A stretch of DNA of 37,959 bases, taken from positions 1 through 37,959 of the IMG/VR virus record IMGVR_UViG_2541047683_000006. The stretch is one strand, 5' to 3'. Shown piece by piece: positions 1 through 37,583 of this stretch. This DNA comes from a virus (lineage: Duplodnaviria; Heunggongvirae; Uroviricota; Caudoviricetes). How positions within the stretch are numbered: position 1 is the first letter of the stretch; each line of letters opens with the position of its first letter. A program made the translations under genes and the position numbers. A model generated the notes under the pieces. The model did no database searches. It was not told the origin of the DNA and worked only from the letters and a program-made list of their open reading frames with translations.

Positions 1-435
1 ATGCATCTAGAAGTCTCTATTAATCCAGAAACTAGAGCTGAATTTTTTGATGAAGTTTTTCTCAAATTCCCGGAGCTAGAGTCTTCTATCATTGATGATT
101 TCAAGAGATACAAAGCAACCGGTGAGCTTCCGCATTATTTCGGTAGGGACGTTGCGTATACTCAGCCCTATGGTGCTTTTCGGGCTGGGTTGATGCATAT
201 CCATCTTTGTCTACCGCCAAACAAGTTTCCCGAGAAACTTCCACAACCGGATAGGGTCTGCAAGAAAGGTGATCCTGATAATGATGCTTGTCTTGTGTAT
301 GTCCAAGGTGAGCTTTATGAGAATAAATATTCACTCATTGCTATTATGTATCCCGATGCACATGAAAAAGCAAGAAAACATGATGTGATGAGCTATCTGG
401 CGCGAATTGCCCAGAATTATAAAGATGAAAACTAA
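1..435 (+). CDS. YafO-family type II toxin-like protein (ribosome-dependent mRNA interferase family)
   Basis: 144-aa ORF with ATG at base 1; motif pattern LPxYFGRD...HIHL...LVYxQG...IAIxYPDAHxKAR matches my recollection of E. coli YafO; AT-rich; followed by hairpin plus T-run. A cognate antitoxin, if present, would be upstream outside the window. Confidence 0.5.
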   Translation: MHLEVSINPETRAEFFDEVFLKFPELESSIIDDFKRYKATGELPHYFGRDVAYTQPYGAFRAGLMHIHLCLPPNKFPEKLPQPDRVCKKGDPDNDACLVYVQGELYENKYSLIAIMYPDAHEKARKHDVMSYLARIAQNYKDEN

Positions 436-770: not shown

Positions 771-1343
771 TCATAATTCTGTGCTGGTGGCAGGAATTAG
801 TTTCTGCCAGATAGCGGAAACATATTTTGCCTGATGACGGGCATCAGCCAGGGCGTTGTGCCGTTCGCCATCGAAAGGCATGTCCATTTTTGGGTCGAAT
901 CCGATGGAACGCCCAAGCGTAACGATCGTGCGTACATCGTGGTCATTCCAGTACGCCCACGGGCAGATTTGTCCTGCTCGCTCGTAAGCTCCACGTAAAA
1001 TTACGTTGTCGAAGGTGGCCCCGTTACCCCAGACTTTTAAATATTTTGTATTGTCTGCATGCTGATTAATGAAATGGCTCAGTTCAGAGAGTGCATCGCT
1101 GATCGACAAAGTATCATCAATACAGATTGCAGCTCGTGCTTCAGAGCTCTGTTTCAACCACCACAGGATGGTATCGCCGTCAGGTGTAGCTCCTTGCCCC
1201 ATAGCACTTTCCAGGCTAACAACCGTATAGAATTCTTGTCCGATGTCTCCGGTTTCTGGAGTGAAGAACACCGCGCCAATGGAAACGATCGGTGCATCCT
1301 TATTTTTCCCCATCGTCTCAAGGTCGATCATTAAGTTATTCAT
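771..1343 (-). CDS. DEDDh-type 3'-5' exonuclease (DnaQ-like fold)
   Basis: 190 aa; motifs IDLETMG, WGNGATFD and HNALADA are consistent with a DEDDh exonuclease; strong SD AGGAGGTG upstream; start overlaps the stop of the upstream gene. Confidence 0.65.
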   Translation of the reverse strand: MNNLMIDLETMGKNKDAPIVSIGAVFFTPETGDIGQEFYTVVSLESAMGQGATPDGDTILWWLKQSSEARAAICIDDTLSISDALSELSHFINQHADNTKYLKVWGNGATFDNVILRGAYERAGQICPWAYWNDHDVRTIVTLGRSIGFDPKMDMPFDGERHNALADARHQAKYVSAIWQKLIPATSTEL

Positions 1344-3470: not shown

Positions 3471-4295
3471 TCAGGCGGTGAAAGTACCAATAAAGGTTTC
3501 TACTTTGCTGTCTTTGAATTTCTCAACAAGCAGATCACGAAATTCGTTAGCCATTTCTTCCTGCACTGCTTCCAGCTGAATAATGCGCAGAACCAGTACA
3601 GGACGATCGCCAGTGATAATGCTGAGGCGTAATTTAAATGGACGTTCTTTCAGACCTTCAAACGGAACGCATTTAAATTCAAATGCCACTGGCATAATAT
3701 CTTTGGTCTTCGCTTCGACAGACTCCATCAGGGAGCGTTTGCCGCTGAAGTCATTATCTTCAAAATCAGCGGTCTGGTTTGCTTCAATCGTGATTTTACG
3801 GACAGCCGCAGCCGATTTTGTTGCCTGAATAGCGTCACCATTAGCATCAAAGCCCACAAGGTAGTCGGCCCAGTCTTCAATCCATTCTGCCAGTGACTTC
3901 TGGGAGTTACGCTCGCCATTAACAGACAACAGAGCAGAGAACGGTGCTGTCTTTTTCAGTTTGAGAGTGGCGGTGTTATCTGCGTGACCTGGTTCATCAA
4001 TAGTACCCAGGTTAATCACACTGACGGCTCGCATATTATCGGCATCGATAAAGCAGCGGGTGCCTTCATCTGCAAGATCTTTAGAATAACGGGTAAAGTC
4101 ATCGATGCTGGCAGTGGAAAGCGCACCACGGAAACGGAAGCGATTTAAATTAAATTTCTCCAGATCATGAATGCGGAAATTCTCAGGCAATGCCACAGCA
4201 TCGGCACCAATCTTACTGATAATTTCATTAACACCCTGAGCAGAAATAAGGGCATGGATTTGATTAATTGCGGTTGCGTCTAAGTTCTGAGACAT
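3471..4295 (-). CDS. YfdQ-like protein (DUF2303 family)
   Basis: 274 aa; overall resemblance to E. coli CPS-53 prophage YfdQ as recalled, and adjacency to YfdP-like and YfdR-like genes; SD GAGGA upstream. Confidence 0.5.
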
Positions 4296-4360
4296 AATAA
4301 GTCCTCACTATATAAAGATATTCAGTGATGAGATAAATAATCGGTTAATTAAGAACGATA

Positions 4361-4723
4361 TTAATGACCTGCTGCGCGGAGTTTTCCGTCAGGTTCACCG
4401 GCAAGAGTCAGTAATTGTCCCTGGTCTTCCTGCAGAATAGTCAGGCGGCCACCGCGATTGACATACATCGGCGTTTCGGTGGTGTCTTCTTCGGAAATTT
4501 TCCCGCGGTTAGTCGGGCGAACATATGAGAGTTTGTGTTTGATTTTCACACGGTTCTCATCAAATGGTTCGATTTCCAGGTTGAGCGAGACCTTACCTTT
4601 GGTTTTCGTGTTCATCACACCGGAAGCGACTTCACTGAGAACTGCGCCGATTTTGGTTTCAAATACGCCGCCGTCCAGCTCCCCGATAAATGCCTGCACA
4701 TCAGTACTGCGTTCGCTAGCCAT
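4361..4723 (-). CDS. YfdP-like hypothetical protein (120 aa), first gene of the PL operon
   Basis: Internal ATG (MASERSTDV...) of track ORF 4361..5041 with SD GAGGAG upstream; the track extension upstream is GC-rich and low-complexity, so treated as non-coding leader. Confidence 0.45.
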   Translation of the reverse strand: MASERSTDVQAFIGELDGGVFETKIGAVLSEVASGVMNTKTKGKVSLNLEIEPFDENRVKIKHKLSYVRPTNRGKISEEDTTETPMYVNRGGRLTILQEDQGQLLTLAGEPDGKLRAAGH

Positions 4724-4771
4724 TTTGCTGCTCCTCATCATATCGACCCTGCAAGGTCGGTTGGTTTCTCC

Positions 4772-4860
4772 ACAAAACAGAGAAGAACACCTGCGGTGGC
4801 AGCCGCCCGGATGGATTGGGTTATGAGCCCGTCGTCCGGTGATGCTCTTCTCTGTTTTGT
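4772..4860. repeat. 15-bp perfect inverted repeat (acaaaacagagaaga / tcttctctgttttgt) with a 59-nt spacer, inside the PL leader
   Basis: Seen directly at 4772-4786 and 4846-4860; a second 10-bp inverted repeat gcggtaccag/ctggtaccgc lies at 4868-4877 and 4897-4906. Confidence 0.7.
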
Positions 4861-5062
4861 AAAAAGAGCGGTACCAGCCGGAAGCAAGTGTACAAACTGG
4901 TACCGCCAGGACTACACACAGCATAAAGTTGTGGTGCCGGGTGCCTCCCGGTGCCTGGCGAAGGTTGCACACCAGGCGGGTGGGTATCCACAGAAGGTCG
5001 ACTGTCAGCCTCAACCTTAACCCGCGTGCGCTGAGCCGCATTCACCACAACTCTAAAAACAA

Positions 5063-5115
5063 ATGTAGGATATCCAACATGTGAGTGTCAAGAGTTTATG
5101 TTGGTTATCCTACAT
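5063..5115 (-). promoter_or_regulatory. PL-like leftward early promoter with two operator palindromes (OL1 5063-5080, OL2 5098-5115)
   Basis: ATGTAGGATATCCAACAT and ATGTTGGTTATCCTACAT are the same palindrome seen three times at OR; minus-strand TTGACA (plus 5086-5091) with a -10-like TACATT overlapping OL1. Confidence 0.55.
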
Positions 5116-5130
5116 AAAAAGATAGGCTCA

Positions 5131-5157
5131 TAAAAAAACCGGGGATACCCCGGTTTT
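5131..5157 (-). terminator. Intrinsic terminator downstream of the repressor gene (possibly bidirectional)
   Basis: ccgggg-ata-ccccgg stem flanked by A7 on one side and T4 on the other; lies between the cI stop (5178) and PL. Confidence 0.55.
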
Positions 5158-5177
5158 GCGATAGTGAGGAAGATGTG

Positions 5178-5831
5178 TCAAAAATCCATTATTACTTGTT
5201 TGACAAGACCAACTATTCTGCAGTTCTCACCGCATTCAATAGTTTTATAGTTAGGATTTAGTGGGACGAGATACCTGTTCGGCCAGTCCTCAACAAATTT
5301 TTTGAGTGTCGCTTCTTGCCCACCATTGATATGGGCAACAACGATTTTTCCGTTAATACACTCTGTATCAATAATATCTGGCTCTACGATAACGATAGAA
5401 CCTTCTGGTATCGATGGTGAGCCGAGGGGATTGGTCATTGAATCACCACGGACCCGTAGTGCAAATGCCATTTCTGATACAAGGGCGGTAGTATAAACCC
5501 ACTCTTCAGCATCTTCTTTCCTGACACCAGGCTCCGTCATTGTCCATGAACCCGCCTGAACCCACGAGATGAGGGGGACTTTTTTAACTGCGAATATTTC
5601 AGGTTTTAGATTTATCTTTGGTTCAGGCGAGCCTTTTCCGCTAACAAGCCACAGAGGATCGCATTTAAGTGCGTTGGCTAGGGCTTGAAGGTTGGCTCCA
5701 TTTGGTTGGTAGTCGTCCTTTTCCCATCCAGTAACCGTGACACGGTTCACACCAGTCAAATCAGCCAGTGCTTGTTGTGTCAGGTTCAGTTCTTTTCGCC
5801 TTTGGCGAATACGATCACTCATGTTCATCAT
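5178..5831 (-). CDS. cI: CI-like prophage repressor (XRE-type HTH plus S24 LexA-like autopeptidase domain)
   Basis: 217 aa; N-terminal HTH (LTQQALADLTGVNRVTVTGWE) and C-terminal S24 signature (RVRGDSM...K); divergent from the cro-like gene with operators between them. Confidence 0.85.
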   Translation of the reverse strand: MMNMSDRIRQRRKELNLTQQALADLTGVNRVTVTGWEKDDYQPNGANLQALANALKCDPLWLVSGKGSPEPKINLKPEIFAVKKVPLISWVQAGSWTMTEPGVRKEDAEEWVYTTALVSEMAFALRVRGDSMTNPLGSPSIPEGSIVIVEPDIIDTECINGKIVVAHINGGQEATLKKFVEDWPNRYLVPLNPNYKTIECGENCRIVGLVKQVIMDF

Positions 5832-5895
5832 GTAGGCAATCCTACCACATGCCCATGTAGGATTCTTGACATTGGTATGTTGGATATCCTACATT
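5830..5895. promoter_or_regulatory. OR region: three operator palindromes (about 5830-5845, 5855-5872, 5877-5894) with rightward PR and presumed divergent PRM
   Basis: atgtaggcaatcctac, atgtaggattcttgacat, atgttggatatcctacat; TTGACA at 5866-5871 and TACATT at 5890-5895 upstream of the cro ATG at 5927. Confidence 0.6.
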
Positions 5896-5926
5896 TCTGC
5901 TTAACGTAATTTAACGGGAGACAGAA

Positions 5927-6124
5927 ATGCGGAAATCCGACGTGATTAATTATTTCGGCGGAGTTTGTAAAACCGCCGAAGCCCTAGGTATTAAGCATCC
6001 GTCTGTTTCAGAGTGGCCTGAGATTATTCCTGAAGGCCGAGCGTACCAGTTAGAAAAAATTACTAACGGGAAACTGAAAGTTGACGTGTCTTTATATCAA
6101 AAGACTAACAGTGCTGCGGCATAA
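5927..6124 (+). CDS. cro: Cro-like small HTH regulator
   Basis: 65-aa ORF immediately right of OR, SD GGGAGA; HTH-like segment CKTAEALGIKHPSVSEW. Confidence 0.7.
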   Translation: MRKSDVINYFGGVCKTAEALGIKHPSVSEWPEIIPEGRAYQLEKITNGKLKVDVSLYQKTNSAAA

Positions 6125-6151
6125 AAACACCACAGAAATGAGGAATTAACC

Positions 6152-6736
6152 GTGGGTAAAGAACCTGAATGGAAAGTTGATAAACAACCAGCATGGCTGG
6201 TGGCAGCAATACGAAGAACGATTGCTGATTTACCTCATGGCTATGAGGAAGCAGCAGAAATTCTTGGTTTGTATAAATCTGATGATATCACCCCAGCAAA
6301 AGATCAATTGCATAACAGACTGCGTAGCGGTGGGGATCAAATTTTTCCACTTGAGTGGGCCATGGTTTTACAGGATGCCAGTGGTACCAGGCATGTAACA
6401 GATGCAATAGCCCGTCGTAGTAATGGGGTGTTTGTGCCGCTGGTGGTCATTGATGACATTGACAATGGTGACATTAATCAGCGGCTGATGGAGTCAATAG
6501 AATGGATTGGCAAGCATTCCCAGTACTTACGCAAGGCAACTGCTGATGGAGTTATTGACCAAGCTGAGCGTGAGCAAATCGAAGAGAACAGCTACCAAGT
6601 AATGGCGAAGTGGCAGGAGCATTTAACACTGTTATTTCGTGTTTTTTGTGCGCCGGAAAAGAGTAACGCCCGCGAGTGTGCAGCTCCGGGCGTCGTGGCG
6701 TCGATTGCTTCTGGTTGTGGAGAAACTAACGCATGA
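6152..6736 (+). CDS. CII-like regulatory protein (phage 186 CII / CP76-like, possibly YdaT-like)
   Basis: 194 aa, GTG start with SD GAGGA; position directly after cro and loose pattern similarity to 186 CII as recalled; family assignment uncertain. Confidence 0.35.
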
Positions 6737-31137: not shown

Positions 31138-32182
31138 ATTTCAGCGCCCGACGCTGGCAGAAAATATCAGTATGCTCCGTAACGATTTATTCGCCAGGCT
31201 GGACGTCAGCGACACGCTCCGGCGCATGGATGAAGACGTGCGGGCAAAGGTGTATGCGGCGGCGCTGCATACGGTTTACGGTTACATCGATTATCTGGCA
31301 ATGAACATGCTGCCTGACCTGTGCGATGAGTCCTGGCTGGCGCGACATGCTGCGATGAAACGGTGTCCGCGCAAGGGAGCCACGGCTGCCAGTGGGTATA
31401 TGCGCTGGGAAGGTGTCAGCGATGGCCTGAAGGTGACCGCCGGGAGTGTTATTCAGCGCGATGACCTGGTGCAGTACACGACAACTGACGATGCAACCAG
31501 CTCCGGTGGTGTCCTGCGCGTGCCGATCGCCTGCTCAAGTGCAGGTGCGGTCGGTAACGCTGACGACGGTACGGCATTAATCCTGGTCACGCCGGTGAAT
31601 GGTCTGCCGTCTTCCGGTGTGGCTGACACCCTGACAGGCGGATTTGATACTGAAGAGCTGGAAACGTGGCGCGCCCGCGTCATTGAGCGGTATTACTGGA
31701 CGCCGCAGGGCGGGGCTGACGGGGACTATGTTGTCTGGGCTAAAGAAGTGCCCGGCATTACCCGCGCATGGACATACCGTCACTGGATGGGAACGGGAAC
31801 TGTCGGTGTGATGATTGCCAGCAGTGACCTGATTAATCCCATTCCTGAAGAATCAACGGAAACGGCGGCAAGACAACATATCGAGCCACTGGCCCCGGTG
31901 GCAGGCTCTGATTTGTATGTATTCAGGCCGGTGGCACATAAAGTGGATTTTCATATCCGCGTGACGCCGGACACACCGGAAATACGAGCCGCCATTACTG
32001 CGGAGTTGCGTTCGTTCCTGCTGCGTGATGGTTATCCGCAGGGAGAACTGAAGGTGTCGCGTATCAGTGAAGCGATTTCCGGTGCGAACGGGGAATACAG
32101 CCATCAGTTGCTTGCACCGGCGGACAATATCTCCATTGCAAAAAATGAACTGGCGGTTCTGGGGACGATTTTATGGACGTGA
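31124..32182 (+). CDS. Baseplate J-like protein (Mu gp47-like)
   Basis: 352 aa; conserved order. Confidence 0.75.
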
Positions 32183-32757
32183 CAAACGATGATTACATCC
32201 GTCTGTTGTCGGCACTGCTGCCGCCCGGTCCGGCGTGGCCAGCTAGCGATCCGGCGATTGCCGGTGCAGCACCGTCATTAACCCGTGTTCATCAGCGTGC
32301 GGATGCCCTGATGCGGGAGCTGGATCCGCGCACCACCACCGAACTGATAAATCGCTGGGAGCGTCTGTGCGGCCTGCCGGATGAATGTATTCCCGCAGGG
32401 ACACAGACCCTTCTCCAGCGTCAGCAACGGCTGGATGCGAAGGTTAACCTGGCGGGCGGCATCAACGAGGATTTTTATCTTGCACAGCTTGCTGCCCTGG
32501 GCAGACCAGATGCCACCATCACGCGATACGACAAAAGCACCTTCACCTGCTCATCGGCCTGTACTGACGCGGTGAATGCGCCGGAATGGCGGTATTACTG
32601 GCAGGTCAACATGCCAGCCGCCACCAACACCACCTGGATGACATGTGGCGATCCCTGTGATTCCGCACTGCGTATCTGGGGCGACACCGTTGTCGAGTGT
32701 GTGCTTAACAAACTCTGCCCTTCGCATACCTACGTAATTTTTAAATATCCGGAGTAA
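32173..32757 (+). CDS. Mu gp48-like tail protein (DUF2313/YmfQ family)
   Basis: 194 aa; conserved position between the J-like gene and the fibre gene. Confidence 0.65.
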
Positions 32758-32760
32758 TCC

Positions 32761-34689
32761 ATGCATCGTATAGACACGAAAACCGCGCAGAAGGATAAGT
32801 TCGGCGCGGGTAAGAACGGTTTTACCCGTGGTAACCCCCAGACCGGCACACCTGCCACCGATCTGGATGATGACTACTTTGACATGTTGCAGGAAGAACT
32901 TTGTAGCGTGGTGGAGGCCTCCGGTGCCAGCCTGGAGAAGGAGCGGCACGACCAGTTGCTTACCGCGCTTCGTGCGCTGCTGTTAAGCCGCAAGAATCCG
33001 TTTGGTGATATCAAATCGGACGGCACAGTACCAACGGCTCTCGAAAACCTTGGATTTACAGACCCGGATGACGGGGATTCCCTGGTAGCAGTTAAACAGG
33101 ACCTGGAGAATGCTGTTATCCGAAATCAGCACGACAAAAACGCAGAGATTATTAGTGTGAGGGATTTTGGGGCTATCGGTGACGGTATTGCTGACGACAC
33201 TGCGGCGATACAGCGGGCAATTGACTCGGTTCCGGCAGGATCGCGACTGGGATTCTGGAGAGGAAAGTATTTGTTCGACACTGTAACGTTGTCAAAACCC
33301 ATTGTTCTGGTGGGAGATGCAGACCTGGTTCACAACGGATTCGTTATAAAATCAAGTAATATAACATCGTTATTAACGGGCATGCAGACCTGTCGTGAAT
33401 ACCATCATTCAGCCAGGGCGTTTTCGTGTAATGCCCACCAGGACTTATCTGACTACAAAAATATAAAAATCCTGTTCAACAAGTTTGCGGGTTTTTTCTA
33501 CGCAACTGATATAACAGCCAGGGATTACGATGCGATGTCTGACAATCCGGATAATCGAGTTGTCAGTGATACCCTGATACTTGGTTGTACGTCAGTAGCC
33601 CCTGAGGGTGTAAACGCCGGGCACTTTCAGCATATAGGGGTAACCAACGCAAAGTGCGTCGGCAATTCAACGCACGGAGGGAAAAACGCGACCTCATACA
33701 ATTTTATCAACGGGAACGGATATCTGATTGTTCAGGGTAATTACGATTACGGAAATACTTATGGCTCCTGTGAGGTTGAAAACGATTCCAGTAATACAGT
33801 AATTTCCGGGAACGCATTCAGGGGCAAAATCTGGATTGATGACAGCAGCAACGTCACTGTCAGCGGAAACACCGTTGACGACGAAATTTTGATTACGTCC
33901 CAGACTGACGATGTGCGAAACGTTCTGGTTGCAGGGAATACGGCCAAACGAATAGTCGTTCAGCAATTTGGAGACGAACCTGTCGGCTGGGCATACGATT
34001 GTCATATACAGGGAAATCTGACAACGGGTAATCCGGAATACGAACACGATATTCTGTTGTCGTCACTGATTAGCGGAACAGTGGAAAATAATCGCCTGAA
34101 CGGAGAATCGAAATATTCTATTGGTATTATACGTCATCACAATACGGACCTGATAATACGTAACAATACCGGGAAACGAGAAGCCATTATTTCTGGTAGT
34201 GGCGGAAGAATAATCGATTACGCAAATATAGGTTTTAATGTATTTACTCAGTCAGACAGTCGACACGTTTCCACACTATTGACCCCGGTGTCGGATTATC
34301 TTGATTTACCAGGAAAATACTTGCACGGAACTAAATACGCCGGACAACTGATACCAGGCGGGAATACTGTTATTTCGCTATCAGTACCAGATGTAAAAAA
34401 CTTAGTTTTCAGGGGGATATCGCTGTGGGTGCTAATCCGTGACCCTGCAAATAACAATATGTCCAGCTACAGAATTGATGGATTTTTCATGGTTGTAGGT
34501 TCATCCGTGTCAATAAGTTTTGGAGCTCCTTATTCAGTTCTGGGAGTCGATTCTGGATTTGTGACCGTTGCGAACCAGGGAAGCACAACAACAGCTATCA
34601 TGCTGAGCATAACGAATACCCACGAAACGAAAAATCTGCAAGTTACGATGCTGCCAGCAGTTACCAGCAGATTTGGGCTGGACGATTAA
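32761..34689 (+). CDS. Tail fibre/tailspike with conserved N-terminal anchor and pectate-lyase-like right-handed beta-helix domain (putative polysaccharide depolymerase)
   Basis: 642 aa; N-terminus [22 protein letters not shown]...[14 protein letters not shown] is fibre-anchor-like; [22 protein letters not shown] is the canonical pectate-lyase-3 signature; Asn/Gly/Thr-rich repeats; strongly AT-rich 3' two-thirds. Confidence 0.7.
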
Positions 34690-34707
34690 AAATCTGACAA
34701 ATTGACG

Positions 34708-34753
34708 CGCAATTCTGGGCGGAGAGCGCACAACCTGACAGCCCAGAATTGCG
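34708..34753 (+). other. Perfect 13-bp inverted repeat (cgcaattctgggc ... gcccagaattgcg, 20-nt spacer) 19 nt after the tailspike stop
   Basis: Seen directly; could be the late-operon terminator hairpin (weak T-run follows) or a relic recombination site next to the invertase remnant. Confidence 0.5.
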
Positions 34754-34946
34754 TGTTAATTTGCCCAGAAAAAAACGCAAAGTTACAACTGCTCGCGCAC
34801 AGGGACGAACTGGAGGTCGCTGTCCAGAACAATGGGCGCAGGCTGGACGACTAATTGCATCAGGAGTTTCTCGCCAGAAGGTAGCGATCATCTATGATGT
34901 TGGCGTATCGACTTTGTATAAGAAGTTTCCGGTCGGAGATAAATGA
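34749..34946 (+). pseudogene. Remnant of a Gin/Hin/Pin-family serine DNA invertase (C-terminal HTH domain only)
   Basis: Track ORF starts at TTG; GGRCPEQWAQAGRLIASGVSRQKVAIIYDVGVSTLYKKFP matches the C-terminal DNA-binding domain of Gin/Hin as recalled; the ~130-aa catalytic N-terminal domain is absent. Confidence 0.55.
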
Positions 34947-35049
34947 AACCGTAGCACGTCGTATGCAAGAACGTGCCACGGCTGGCTGGTTAACTTTCGA
35001 TAGTGCGAGTATTGAATGATTTCCAGCCGTTACCGATTTTACGTGTTAA

Positions 35050-35298
35050 TTAGTGAACAAACCACTCATCAGCAGATTCCCAGGTATCTTTCAGAGTCTC
35101 CTGAACAAAAGTTTTTGCAGAATCCTTATCTGCGGTGCGTGTAACAGAAAGGCCATCGTTGCTGGTGGCTTTTACGATCACCTCTACATCGTCATAACGT
35201 TTACTGATGCGTCGGGTTAATTCTTCCTTTAACGCATCCACAGCACCGGTTGGCATTTTAGTCATTTTTTCTTTGGCTATGCAGATTTCAATACGCAT
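35050..35298 (-). CDS. dinI: DinI-family DNA-damage-inducible protein
   Basis: 82 aa; MRIEI.IAK...LP.GA.DAL..EL.RRI...........V.....N.LSV.....KD......ETW.SADEWF matches DinI; SD GAGGGA; two LexA boxes upstream. Confidence 0.8.
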
Positions 35299-35313
35299 AA
35301 AAGTCCCTCTATA

Positions 35314-35357
35314 CTGTGTTTGTATACAGTGTTATTTTTAACTGTATGGATAAACAG
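35314..35357 (-). promoter_or_regulatory. Two SOS (LexA) boxes in the dinI-like promoter region
   Basis: taCTGTgtttgtatACAGtg (35314-35329) and aCTGTatggataaACAGtg (35342-35357), both fitting CTGT-N8-ACAG; the second abuts the integrase stop. Confidence 0.7.
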
Positions 35358-35359
35358 TG

Positions 35360-36457
35360 TCAAGAGGTCTTATTTCTGCTCTTTTGGAGCTCTTCAAAAC
35401 GATTATGTAAAGATTTCGGATACAGTTCGGTATATACCTGCCATAGCACGTTTAATGAACGATGCCCTGTAACTTGGGCGACTTCCTCAATACTAAAACC
35501 AGCCTCAAATAAGCGACTTGCCCCTTCTCTACGCAAATCATGGTATCGCAGATCTTTAATACCTAATTTGCTTCTTACCCTCTGAAATCCCGCAGTAACA
35601 GAAGTGCTGTTATATGGAAAAATGAATTCCGATTTTTGGGGCTGTCGTTGGACGATATCCCAGGCTTCCCCAAGCAAGGCTACTTTCATGTGGTTGCCTT
35701 CCTTTTTGCGTGGATCTTTCCTGTCTCTTACGAGTATAGATTTTTGTTCCTGGTCGAGATCTTCCCATCGTAACCGGCATACTTCTCCGATTCGCATACA
35801 GGACCACACAGAAAATTTGAGGATATCAACGAACGGAATTTTTGAGCATTTATGTGTAGATCGTTGTTGAAGACCTTCAATGAGCATGTCCAGTTCATCA
35901 GATGCCGGTCTACGATTACGACGGTTTGATTTACCAATCAAACCAAGTTTAAGTAGATATGGACGAGCACTTTTCGCCGGGTTTGATGTGTAATTAATTC
36001 CGTATACAGGTTTGGCCGCATCCAGAACACTGCCAAGATAACTAACATCGTGGCTGACTGTTGCTGGACCTGCACCAGCGTTGTTTCTTAGCCTACAATG
36101 TTCAATTACGTCATTTTCTGTCAGTTCGGATAGTTTGATCGCGGAGATGTCACTATCCATAAGCAGTTCCAGCACATATCTTTTAGTACGACCTGCTTTA
36201 CCTCCGGCATTTGGGTCATTTAAATATTTGTGTAGTAAGTCACGGACTGTAAGTCCGTCAACTGCATTTGATGATGGAATGCCATATAGATCTAATTCCA
36301 TCACTTTCTGTGTACCCCATGTTTTGGCATGGGCATGTTTAGGGAATGTTTTGCTTTCCCTGTAAGTGATAACACCTTTTTCTTTGATAATCACATTACA
36401 GCGATAGCGTGGTGTGCCATCGGATTTTAGTCGTTTCTCTATGTTATAGTACGCCAT
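35360..36457 (-). CDS. int: Tyrosine-type site-specific integrase (dusA-associated)
   Basis: 365 aa; C-terminal catalytic region containing HDLRR...GHRS..Y-type motifs; adjacent to dusA. Confidence 0.85.
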   Translation of the reverse strand: MAYYNIEKRLKSDGTPRYRCNVIIKEKGVITYRESKTFPKHAHAKTWGTQKVMELDLYGIPSSNAVDGLTVRDLLHKYLNDPNAGGKAGRTKRYVLELLMDSDISAIKLSELTENDVIEHCRLRNNAGAGPATVSHDVSYLGSVLDAAKPVYGINYTSNPAKSARPYLLKLGLIGKSNRRNRRPASDELDMLIEGLQQRSTHKCSKIPFVDILKFSVWSCMRIGEVCRLRWEDLDQEQKSILVRDRKDPRKKEGNHMKVALLGEAWDIVQRQPQKSEFIFPYNSTSVTAGFQRVRSKLGIKDLRYHDLRREGASRLFEAGFSIEEVAQVTGHRSLNVLWQVYTELYPKSLHNRFEELQKSRNKTS

Positions 36458-36545: not shown

Positions 36546-37583
36546 ATGCACGATAATCCTGAAACACAGAAAACTAATCAAACCAGCGCGATGCCTGAGA
36601 AAACTGGCGCTTACGGGAGTTCTCGGTTTAGCATTGCTCCTATGCTCGACTGGACGGACAGACATTGCCGCTATTTCTTGCGTCTGCTTTCCCGCAATAC
36701 GTTGCTGTATACCGAAATGGTGACTACAGGGGCGATTATTCACGGTAAAGGTGATTACCTGGCGTACAGTGAAGAAGAACATCCGGTAGCATTGCAACTG
36801 GGCGGTAGCGATCCGGCGGCGCTGGCGCAGTGTGCAAAGCTGGCAGAAGCGCGCGGATATGATGAGATCAACCTGAATGTCGGCTGCCCGTCTGACCGGG
36901 TGCAGAACGGCATGTTTGGGGCGTGTCTGATGGGTAATGCGCAGCTGGTTGCCGACTGCGTGAAAGCGATGCGCGATGTGGTGTCGATTCCGGTGACGGT
37001 GAAAACGCGTATTGGCATCGACGACCAGGACAGCTATGAATTTCTCTGCGATTTCATCAACACCGTTTCCGGCAAAGGCGAGTGTGAGATGTTCATCATC
37101 CACGCACGTAAAGCCTGGCTTTCGGGGTTAAGCCCGAAAGAAAACCGTGAAATCCCGCCGCTCGATTATCCGCGTGTGTATCAACTGAAGCGTGACTTTC
37201 CGCATCTGACAATGTCGATTAACGGTGGCATCAAGTCGCTGGAAGAGGCAAAAGCGCATTTGCAACATATGGATGGCGTGATGGTCGGGCGCGAAGCGTA
37301 TCAGAATCCGGGTATTCTGGCGGCGGTAGACCGAGAGATCTTTGGTTCCTCGGATACCGATGCCGATCCGGTGGCGGTAGTGCGCGCCATGTATCCGTAC
37401 ATTGAGCGTGAACTCAGCCAGGGGACGTATCTTGGCCATATTACCCGGCATATGCTGGGCTTGTTCCAGGGTATTCCTGGCGCGCGGCAGTGGCGGCGTT
37501 ATTTAAGTGAAAATGCCCATAAAGCTGGTGCTGACATTAACGTGCTGGAACAAGCGCTCAAACTGGTGGCAGATAAGCGTTAA
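36546..37583 (+). CDS. dusA: tRNA-dihydrouridine(20/20a) synthase DusA
   Basis: 345 aa matching E. coli DusA as recalled ([14 protein letters not shown]..., [14 protein letters not shown]...); the extreme 5' end may be prophage-supplied. Confidence 0.9.

Follow-up and report, generated by a model that had tools for sequence, protein, structure and literature searches.

A probable podovirus-type tailspike joined to a constant baseplate anchor at a gix-like site in an SfV/e14-like prophage of Escherichia coli

Introduction

In phage Mu (S/U with Gin), e14 (StfP/TfaP with Pin), and P2-like phages (H/G with an invertase), the place after gp48 is taken by a fibre locus with a gix-like site, encoding xNLGx, at the junction between constant and variable parts. 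The same place in the E. coli prophage DNA analysed here (37,959 nucleotides, hereafter the window) is occupied by a gene at 32761-34689, which an earlier note had read as a tailspike with a pectate-lyase-like β-helix in place of the usual Mu-type fibre and its invertible segment. The locus raised the question of what kind of receptor-binding protein this gene encodes and how it came to stand where a switchable fibre is found in other phages. Exchange of receptor-binding modules and variability of fibre/invertase loci are already well documented, and nothing conceptually new is claimed for them here; Det7 and CBA120 are natural myoviruses with tailspikes. Our reading, which we consider likely, is that the gene product serves a temperate SfV/e14-like myovirus as its only receptor-binding protein and is a horizontally acquired podovirus-type tailspike carried on a constant anchor. 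Features are on the plus strand unless stated otherwise.

Results

The window holds an SfV/e14-like prophage

Over 32000-35400 the DNA matched E. coli strain 1428 at 99.9% identity. The window contained head, tail, lysis, and regulatory genes in full complement, including those for a tyrosine integrase, TerL terminase, an S24 CI-like repressor, an HK97-type capsid, a tail sheath, and a tape measure. The window ended with a DinI gene on the minus strand (35050-35298), followed by the tyrosine integrase abutting dusA. The baseplate genes were Mu-like according to Pfam (DNA_circ_N, Gp44-like, V, gp46, Baseplate_J, and Phage_Mu_Gp48). Because SfV, SfI, SfII, and SfIV were the closest sequenced phages, and because the integrase, TerL, the CI-like repressor, and the HK97-type capsid were found together, the phage is an SfV/e14-like temperate E. 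coli myovirus with a Mu-like tail and baseplate. A transposable Mu-like phage (Muvirus) was ruled out by the same genes, by the position of the integrase next to dusA, and by the kinship with the SfV group. The term 'Mu-type' in the earlier note thus applies to the tail/baseplate module but not to the phage.

One intact gene is annotated in two pieces

The gene at 32761-34689 was a single intact ORF of 642 aa with an ATG start. A GGAG ribosome-binding site (32751-32754) lay 6 nt 5' of the ATG, at the stop codon of the gp48/YmfQ gene (32755-32757), so that the gene was packed into the baseplate operon gp44-gp48 directly after gp48/YmfQ. PHROG 20231 ('tail protein') matched the protein end to end with 1213 bits, and no NCBIfam model matched it at cut-off.

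The same intact ORF was present in strain 1428, where RefSeq/PGAP has two pieces, a 'StfP pseudogene' and a 'glycoside hydrolase family 55 protein'. The two-gene model was rejected, in that the frame is continuous and homology to the Sf6 tailspike (aa 101-161) spans the proposed split. The GH55 name was rejected as well. Judged by two tandem β-helix domains plus family-wide sequence similarity, the protein did not qualify, since its similarity to the GH55 structures 5m5z and 3eqn was limited to aa 128-187 (the helix cap) and its predicted model contained one helix. The GH55 product name is a cap-motif artefact, and the split of one gene into a 'StfP pseudogene' plus a 'GH55 family protein' is a recurring mis-annotation in RefSeq that the present locus exposes.

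A constant anchor ends at a gix-like crossover core

The DNA from 32000 to 33057 was 95-96% identical to SfV, SfI, SfII, SfIV, and hundreds of E. coli prophages, after which similarity ended; for the anchor region, identity to sibling prophages and SfV-group phages was 95-97% and ran up to 33054-33064. The first part of the gene (32761-33051, aa 1-~97) encoded a constant N-terminal baseplate anchor of the StfP/SfV-fibre type, matched by PHROG 1396 ('tail fiber protein') over aa 1-103 and distantly similar to Mu S (29% identity to Mu S aa 42-110, E 9e-7). With the Mu S and e14 StfP fibres the protein had only these N-terminal ~100 aa in common. GC content was 0.55 for 32761-33050 and the upstream structural genes versus 0.45 for 33064-34689. 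The composition and the end of sibling identity at 33054-33064 both bear out the proposal that a conserved fibre anchor was paired with a foreign, AT-rich domain.

Comparison with relatives, which had been put forward together with a GC profile as a way to map the recombination breakpoint, placed the left junction at a degenerate gix/pix-like invertase crossover site at 33038-33063 (CTCTCGAAAACC-TT-GGATTTACAGAC), which encodes ALENLGFTD. Its position and the peptide it encodes make it the homologue of Mu gixL, which marks the G-segment boundary as annotated in Mu (TTATCCAAAACCTCGGTTTACAGGAA, encoding FIQNLGLQE), and its counterpart at the left junction in a P2-like prophage of strain 51489 (L002) was GTTCTTGATTACCTTGGATTTACAGAC, encoding VLDYLGFTD. 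Two siblings (L003 and L004) had the left half-site only in common with the window, and the P2-like copy had the right half-site only; the cassette therefore begins at the crossover core in both chassis.

The site was detected with a search for the 12-nt core only, in which it was the sole gix-like site within 32900-34900 at no more than one core mismatch, and the full 24-nt gix consensus gave 0 matches in the window at up to 3 mismatches. No partner crossover site was found in 32900-34900. For comparison, P2-like relatives in which the locus is complete had gix sites there; in L006 these lay at 806 and 3477, on either side of an inverted fibre/chaperone set that adjoins a recombinase. A second match to the 12-nt core, at 5138-5163 of the window, looks like chance.

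The imported cassette ends just past a hairpin and abuts an invertase relic

The imported DNA was a cassette of ~1.7 kb (33052-34765) comprising the tailspike neck, β-helix, C-terminal domain, and a 3' hairpin, and it was absent from the sibling prophages at dusA. The window segment 33039-34772 was 99.0% identical to positions 4993-6726 of the P2-like L002, inside a gene for an 805-aa 'tail-collar fibre'. There the cassette sat at the equivalent xYLG gix position and was followed by a truncated invertase of P2-like type.

A hairpin with a 23-bp stem lay just 3' of the stop codon (34698-34763, -42.8 kcal/mol, z -9.0). No shuffled sequence folded as well, and the hairpin, common to the window and the P2-like copy, was seen in cassette carriers only. 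The right end of the DNA common to the two (about 34765) was just past it. The hairpin was rejected as a classical intrinsic terminator, since it lacked a U-tract and was not flagged by a terminator scan; because no U-tract follows it, a terminator role is uncertain. The idea that part of its 3' arm was invertase coding sequence was also ruled out, in that the homology of the P2-like copy to full-length invertases began past the hairpin (L002 6720).

Next came a pseudogene relic of a Gin/Pin-family serine invertase (34782-34946), ~55 codons with only the C-terminal HTH left and a 12-bp internal deletion. It matched Pfam HTH_7 (E 4.5e-11) and PHROG 125 ('DNA invertase'), and aligned with Gin aa 127-180 it showed 56% identity and a gap of 4 residues. 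The ~125 aa of the catalytic N-terminus were missing, and PGAP labels it 'incomplete, missing N-terminus'. From 34789 onwards the relic had 93% DNA identity to the invertase pseudogene of the sibling L004. Sibling identity resumed at 34789, inside the invertase pseudogene of strain CX12, or at 34929-34945. Between the junctions the siblings hold the distal part of the fibre, one or more tail-fibre assembly genes, and a recombinase/Pin/Gin invertase. In the window, by comparison, the stretch from the stop codon at 34689 to the DinI gene at 35050 contained the hairpin and the truncated relic only, and neither the ORFs nor Pfam revealed a Tfa/tail-fibre chaperone gene there, as the earlier note had said.

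Left with one degenerate site that lacks a partner, and without a catalytic domain, the invertible host-range switch in the window is dead. The sibling comparison and the invertase relic support the view that the fibre, its chaperone, and its invertible segment were replaced, with the correction that the invertible system is not wholly gone, since the relic and one degenerate crossover site persist.

The distal part is predicted to be a β-helix spike

The residues next to the anchor formed a neck/linker and β-helix cap homologous to the Sf6 tailspike (33061-33243, aa 101-161), with E 4e-13 against 2vbe/4urr/7sg7 by phmmer against PDB. Within this region lay the motif DFGAIGDG...AIQRAID (33163-33228, aa 135-156). 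Pfam PF12708 matched aa 130-341 with 38.2 bits against a cut-off of 27 (E 1.7e-9). An AF2 model (monomer, 19-sequence alignment, mean pLDDT 69.9) predicted a right-handed parallel β-helix at aa ~130-490 (33148-34230), built of stacked short strands with pLDDT about 69-96, mostly >80. The coils were three-stranded and stacked in the right-handed sense with an Asn ladder. The β-helix signature noticed earlier was thus corroborated by the Pfam match, the Sf6 homology, and the predicted fold. The model was poorly defined for the N-terminal 128 residues, which were helical with pLDDT <50, and for a predicted β-sandwich at aa 520-635 with pLDDT 52-77. This C-terminal domain (34318-34665, aa ~520-635; AF2 strands 523-635) was conserved across the family and preceded by an invariant YLDLPGKxLHGTK motif.

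When the family profile was compared with Sf6 gp14 by hhalign, a probability of 96.6% was obtained over aa 117-187 (74 columns), covering the neck and cap only, and no sequence alignment of the helix beyond the cap to solved tailspikes resulted. Assignment of catalytic residues by alignment to Sf6 was therefore given up, and candidates were nominated solely by conservation. Across 30 members of the family, which had 25-52% identity to the query, no variation was seen at E340, N341, D360, D361, a few glycines and aromatics, and an asparagine ladder. The candidate catalytic acids are E340 (33778-33780) and D360-D361 (33838-33843), with E338 and D329 nearby. In the model, E340 is the last residue of AF2 strand 337-340 and D360 that of strand 357-360, and these two strands occupy corresponding places in successive coils.

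The chemistry that such residues would support can be weighed in two ways. One is that the protein is a lyase acting on polysaccharide, or else an epimerase or a spike that only binds; an acidic capsule or exopolysaccharide would then be cut by β-elimination, as the label 'pectate-lyase-like' implies. Judged by fold alone, lyases and hydrolases are matched about equally well. In GH28 and GH87 enzymes an acid is followed one coil later by a DD pair. Because the placement of E340 and D360-D361 on adjacent coils resembles that pattern, it suggests by analogy a glycoside hydrolase (acid/base) rather than a lyase. Pectate and polysaccharide lyases of families PL1, PL3, PL6, and PL9 have an Arg or Lys as conserved catalytic base, together with an acidic cluster that binds Ca. 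No invariant or near-invariant Arg or Lys was present in the helix among the 30 family members. We regard the lyase, epimerase, or binding-only alternative as unlikely, and a putative hydrolase is the reading kept below.

The family is widespread in E. coli prophages on several anchors

The cassette was found in 13 of the 5426 complete E. coli genomes, 12 on the SfV-like chassis and one on the P2-like, and in 5 IMG/VR prophages. A large group of E. coli proteins, each 663 aa long and bearing the P22 head-binding domain PF09008, matched the entire receptor-binding module at 54% identity. Relatives at about 54% were found on P22-like, phiV10-like (Uetakevirus), and G7C-like podovirus anchors. 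The module was also seen with PF18668 and other N-termini. Among sequenced phages, the best matches (45-54% over 90-99% of the module) were EC.W1-9, phiv142-3, St11Ph5, and Aeromonas phages, and Arthrobacter phages reached about 35% identity over the helix. About 33 clusters matched at E <1e-30 among 1.84 billion representative proteins. Exact peptide patterns, which see close kin only, gave no relatives in other species among the GTDB representative genomes, and no biochemical characterisation of family members was found in the literature. The proposed horizontal origin of the domain agrees both with the 99% identical cassette in a P2-like prophage and with the roughly 54% relatives on P22-like and other anchors.

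In BAA-2469 the prophage carrying the cassette lay next to prfC instead of dusA, and its right junction was identical, which points to one origin on the SfV-like chassis. Comparison of the two E. coli alleles showed 13 nonsynonymous and 3 synonymous codon differences, which were confined to aa 368-630 and gave an ω of about 1.3. Nine of the 13 amino-acid differences were at aa 539-630, and residue 577 was M, R, or K. Ordinary purifying selection makes such differences unlikely (P = 8e-4 under an ω of 0.2), whereas neutrality is compatible with them; the pattern could stem from adaptation at the receptor-binding end or, just as well, from relaxed constraint.

A second rival reading is that a defective prophage carries the gene as a relic in decay, formed by accidental fusion through a deletion that also destroyed the invertase, and without a role in adsorption. 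In favour of such a relic are the neighbouring invertase, an evident pseudogene that has lost a further 12 bp; the PGAP annotation of the locus as a pseudogene plus a separate CDS; the ω of about 1.3; and the finding that no isolated phage in a collection of 50,697 records carried the allele at >60% identity. However, the 642-codon frame was open in 13/13 carrier complete genomes and 5 IMG/VR prophages, in two chassis and at two integration sites. All family-invariant residues were kept, the ribosome-binding site and operon coupling were intact, and the window retained its full gene set. Moreover, the changes clustered in the distal helix and the C-terminal domain with three states at residue 577, which is typical of receptor-binding adaptation. 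Decay is thus a very improbable account of this gene, and we favour a tailspike that probably still serves in adsorption.

Carriers do not share one O-serogroup

O-antigen clusters were typed in three carriers. The wzy of strain 1428 occurred in 80 of 5426 genomes, one of them named CE-O153H30, and was shared by BroCaecum-55; among the matches listed (roughly 70 of the 80 wzy records), 2 of the 13 cassette carriers appeared, namely 1428 and BroCaecum-55. BAA-2469 had an rfbBDAC cluster with an 'O25 family flippase', which differs from the wzy cluster of 1428 and BroCaecum-55. A single O-serogroup for all carriers was therefore ruled out as a simple rule, with at least two O-antigen clusters among the three typed. 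Since the clusters differ, the lysogens are not of one O-type, and a reading in which the tailspike matches the O-antigen of its host is unsupported. A full-text literature search gave nothing useful on carrier serotypes.

Pas et al. reported the phiv142-3 subtype in prophages of serogroup O5, O1, O102, and O51 strains, doubted O-antigen specificity, and proposed a common receptor such as K-antigen for this subtype (PMC10408124). St11Ph5 can infect without O-antigen recognition (PMC6393563). The data of Pas et al. and the limited carrier check together suggest that the tailspike family is not tied to one O-serogroup, and such a depolymerase would hold some interest for therapeutic use or for typing.

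Discussion

The protein has the modular architecture of the P22, Sf6, and HK620 tailspikes, with a particle-binding N-terminus, a neck, a right-handed parallel β-helix, and a C-terminal β domain, and its gene stands at the tail-tip position after gp47/gp48. The neck and cap are homologous in sequence to those of Sf6, and the predicted fold matches tailspikes of this group. In contrast to the P22-like tailspikes (the endoglycosidases Sf6 gp14, HK620, and P22 gp9), the N-terminus here is a myovirus baseplate anchor instead of PF09008. phiv142-3 (Uetakevirus), EC.W1-9, St11Ph5 (Gamaleyavirus), and the Aeromonas phages share the receptor-binding family, whereas their anchors and virion types differ.

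On these grounds we propose that the anchor (aa 1-~97) plugs into the gp47/gp48 baseplate wedge, and that from aa ~99 the protein is a podovirus-type tailspike made up of an Sf6-like neck, a β-helix of ~360 residues, and a C-terminal β-sandwich. By analogy with solved tailspikes, a homotrimer would probably bind and cleave a surface polysaccharide, which would allow the baseplate to reach the outer membrane. The ~1.7-kb cassette would have entered exactly at the gix/pix-like core between the constant and variable fibre parts, and would have replaced the variable part, the chaperone or chaperones, the alternative inverted segment, and the 5' two-thirds of the invertase gene. Such a replacement would make the host range unswitchable and a separate chaperone unneeded.

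Compared with the Mu, e14, and P2-like switches, the variable fibre, chaperone, second site, alternative segment, and invertase catalytic domain are all gone here. The distal part is a predicted β-helix spike rather than a fibre tip, and the system is fixed. The engineered R-pyocin AvR2-104, as described by Scholl et al. 2012 (PMC3303846), indicates that a prophage tailspike on a contractile-tail fibre base works. The fusion in the window differs from AvR2-104 in being natural, in belonging to a temperate SfV-like phage, and in having been made at an invertase crossover site. In this locus a podovirus-type tailspike sits on a contractile-tail anchor in a clean, naturally formed fusion, and both junctions are mapped within a few bases. 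The locus is of practical use for phage and tailocin engineering because it marks a natural, tolerated fusion point, between ...ALENLGF and TDPDDGD....

The most interesting detail is the position of the junction at the invertase crossover core, common to two chassis. This position would fit a scenario in which Gin/Pin-type recombination at a quasi-site captured or transferred the cassette and then destroyed the switch, and recombination at the short conserved coding sequence for xNLGx could equally explain it. Two broader ideas are offered as rather doubtful conjectures: the invertase crossover site in fibre genes may be a portable docking point for receptor-binding cassettes, and, separately, the glycan recognised by the tailspike family may be one that different O-serogroups have in common. 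As regards docking, in two unrelated chassis, the SfV-like and the P2-like, the cassette starts at the central dinucleotide of the gix-like site, and each chassis keeps its own left half-site. As regards a shared glycan, the O-antigen clusters of carriers differ, and two isolate genomes in IMG/VR hold, besides the cassette prophage, a second prophage with a 54%-identical paralogous module.

Results and Discussion

The tailspike gene is one intact ORF, both in the window (32761-34689) and at two comparison loci (L001, 3762-5690; L011 of E. coli BAA-2469, 3692-5620), and was split into two features by the RefSeq/PGAP annotation. The first was called a pseudogene, 'StfP, incomplete, missing C-terminus', and the second, 510 aa in length and starting at an internal GTG, was called 'glycoside hydrolase family 55 protein'. 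The fibre genes of sibling prophages were also labelled StfP pseudogenes. Such two-feature or StfP-pseudogene calls at mosaic fibre genes look like a systematic annotation artefact. Among otherwise near-identical alleles, codon 577 (34491-34493), in the C-terminal domain, was found in three states: the window has M, strain 1428 and the 99% identical cassette copy of a P2-like prophage have R, and BAA-2469 has K. Residue 577 may be a receptor-contact hot spot.

Directly 3' of the tailspike stop codon lies a very stable hairpin (34698-34763; stem of 23 bp, loop of 20 nt). It moves with the imported cassette and was present in cassette carriers only; a U-tract was absent. It may serve as an mRNA stabiliser or a terminator, or may be a recombination relic. 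A 65-aa ORF with a TTG start was called at 34749-34946 in the ORF listing, and was rejected as a gene, being an in-frame reading of the invertase relic. Compared with the sibling invertase, this relic lacks 12 bp (residues PKLT). The 12-nt gix core, the core of the invertase crossover site, was matched a second time near the repressor region (5138-5163; ACCGGGGATACCCCGGTTTTGCGATA, one mismatch). Located far from every fibre or invertase gene, this second match is probably a chance occurrence.

The integrase gene (35360-36457, minus strand) adjoins the 5' end of dusA (36546-37583, plus strand), a known integration hot spot, and the window showed no att repeat of the dusA end. In BAA-2469 (L011, 6449-8035), the same tail module and tailspike were located in a prophage adjoining prfC, with no integrase at the prfC end. 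Since the tail and tailspike block lies by dusA here and by prfC in BAA-2469, it is carried on at least two integration modules. The prophage's early/accessory region, at the window's left end, encodes a YafO-family toxin (1-435, plus strand), an Rv2179c-like 3'-5' exoribonuclease (771-1343, minus strand) and a DUF2303 protein (3471-4295, minus strand).

Two IMG isolate genomes, 2675903658 (L013 and L021) and 2778261576 (L015 and L024), each harbored this prophage together with a second prophage carrying a paralogous tailspike module. The second module was in both cases a 54%-identical paralogue, belonging either to the P22-like type of 663 aa or to the 709-aa type. Because both prophages sit in the same isolate genomes, there is a hint that both tailspike alleles target one and the same cell surface. 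The closest host genome, that of E. coli 1428, has an O-antigen flippase gene annotated as truncated (L007, the O-antigen region, 38732-41121, outside the window), and an IS1 element was located about 1 kb downstream of it. This lysogen may fail to produce O-antigen.
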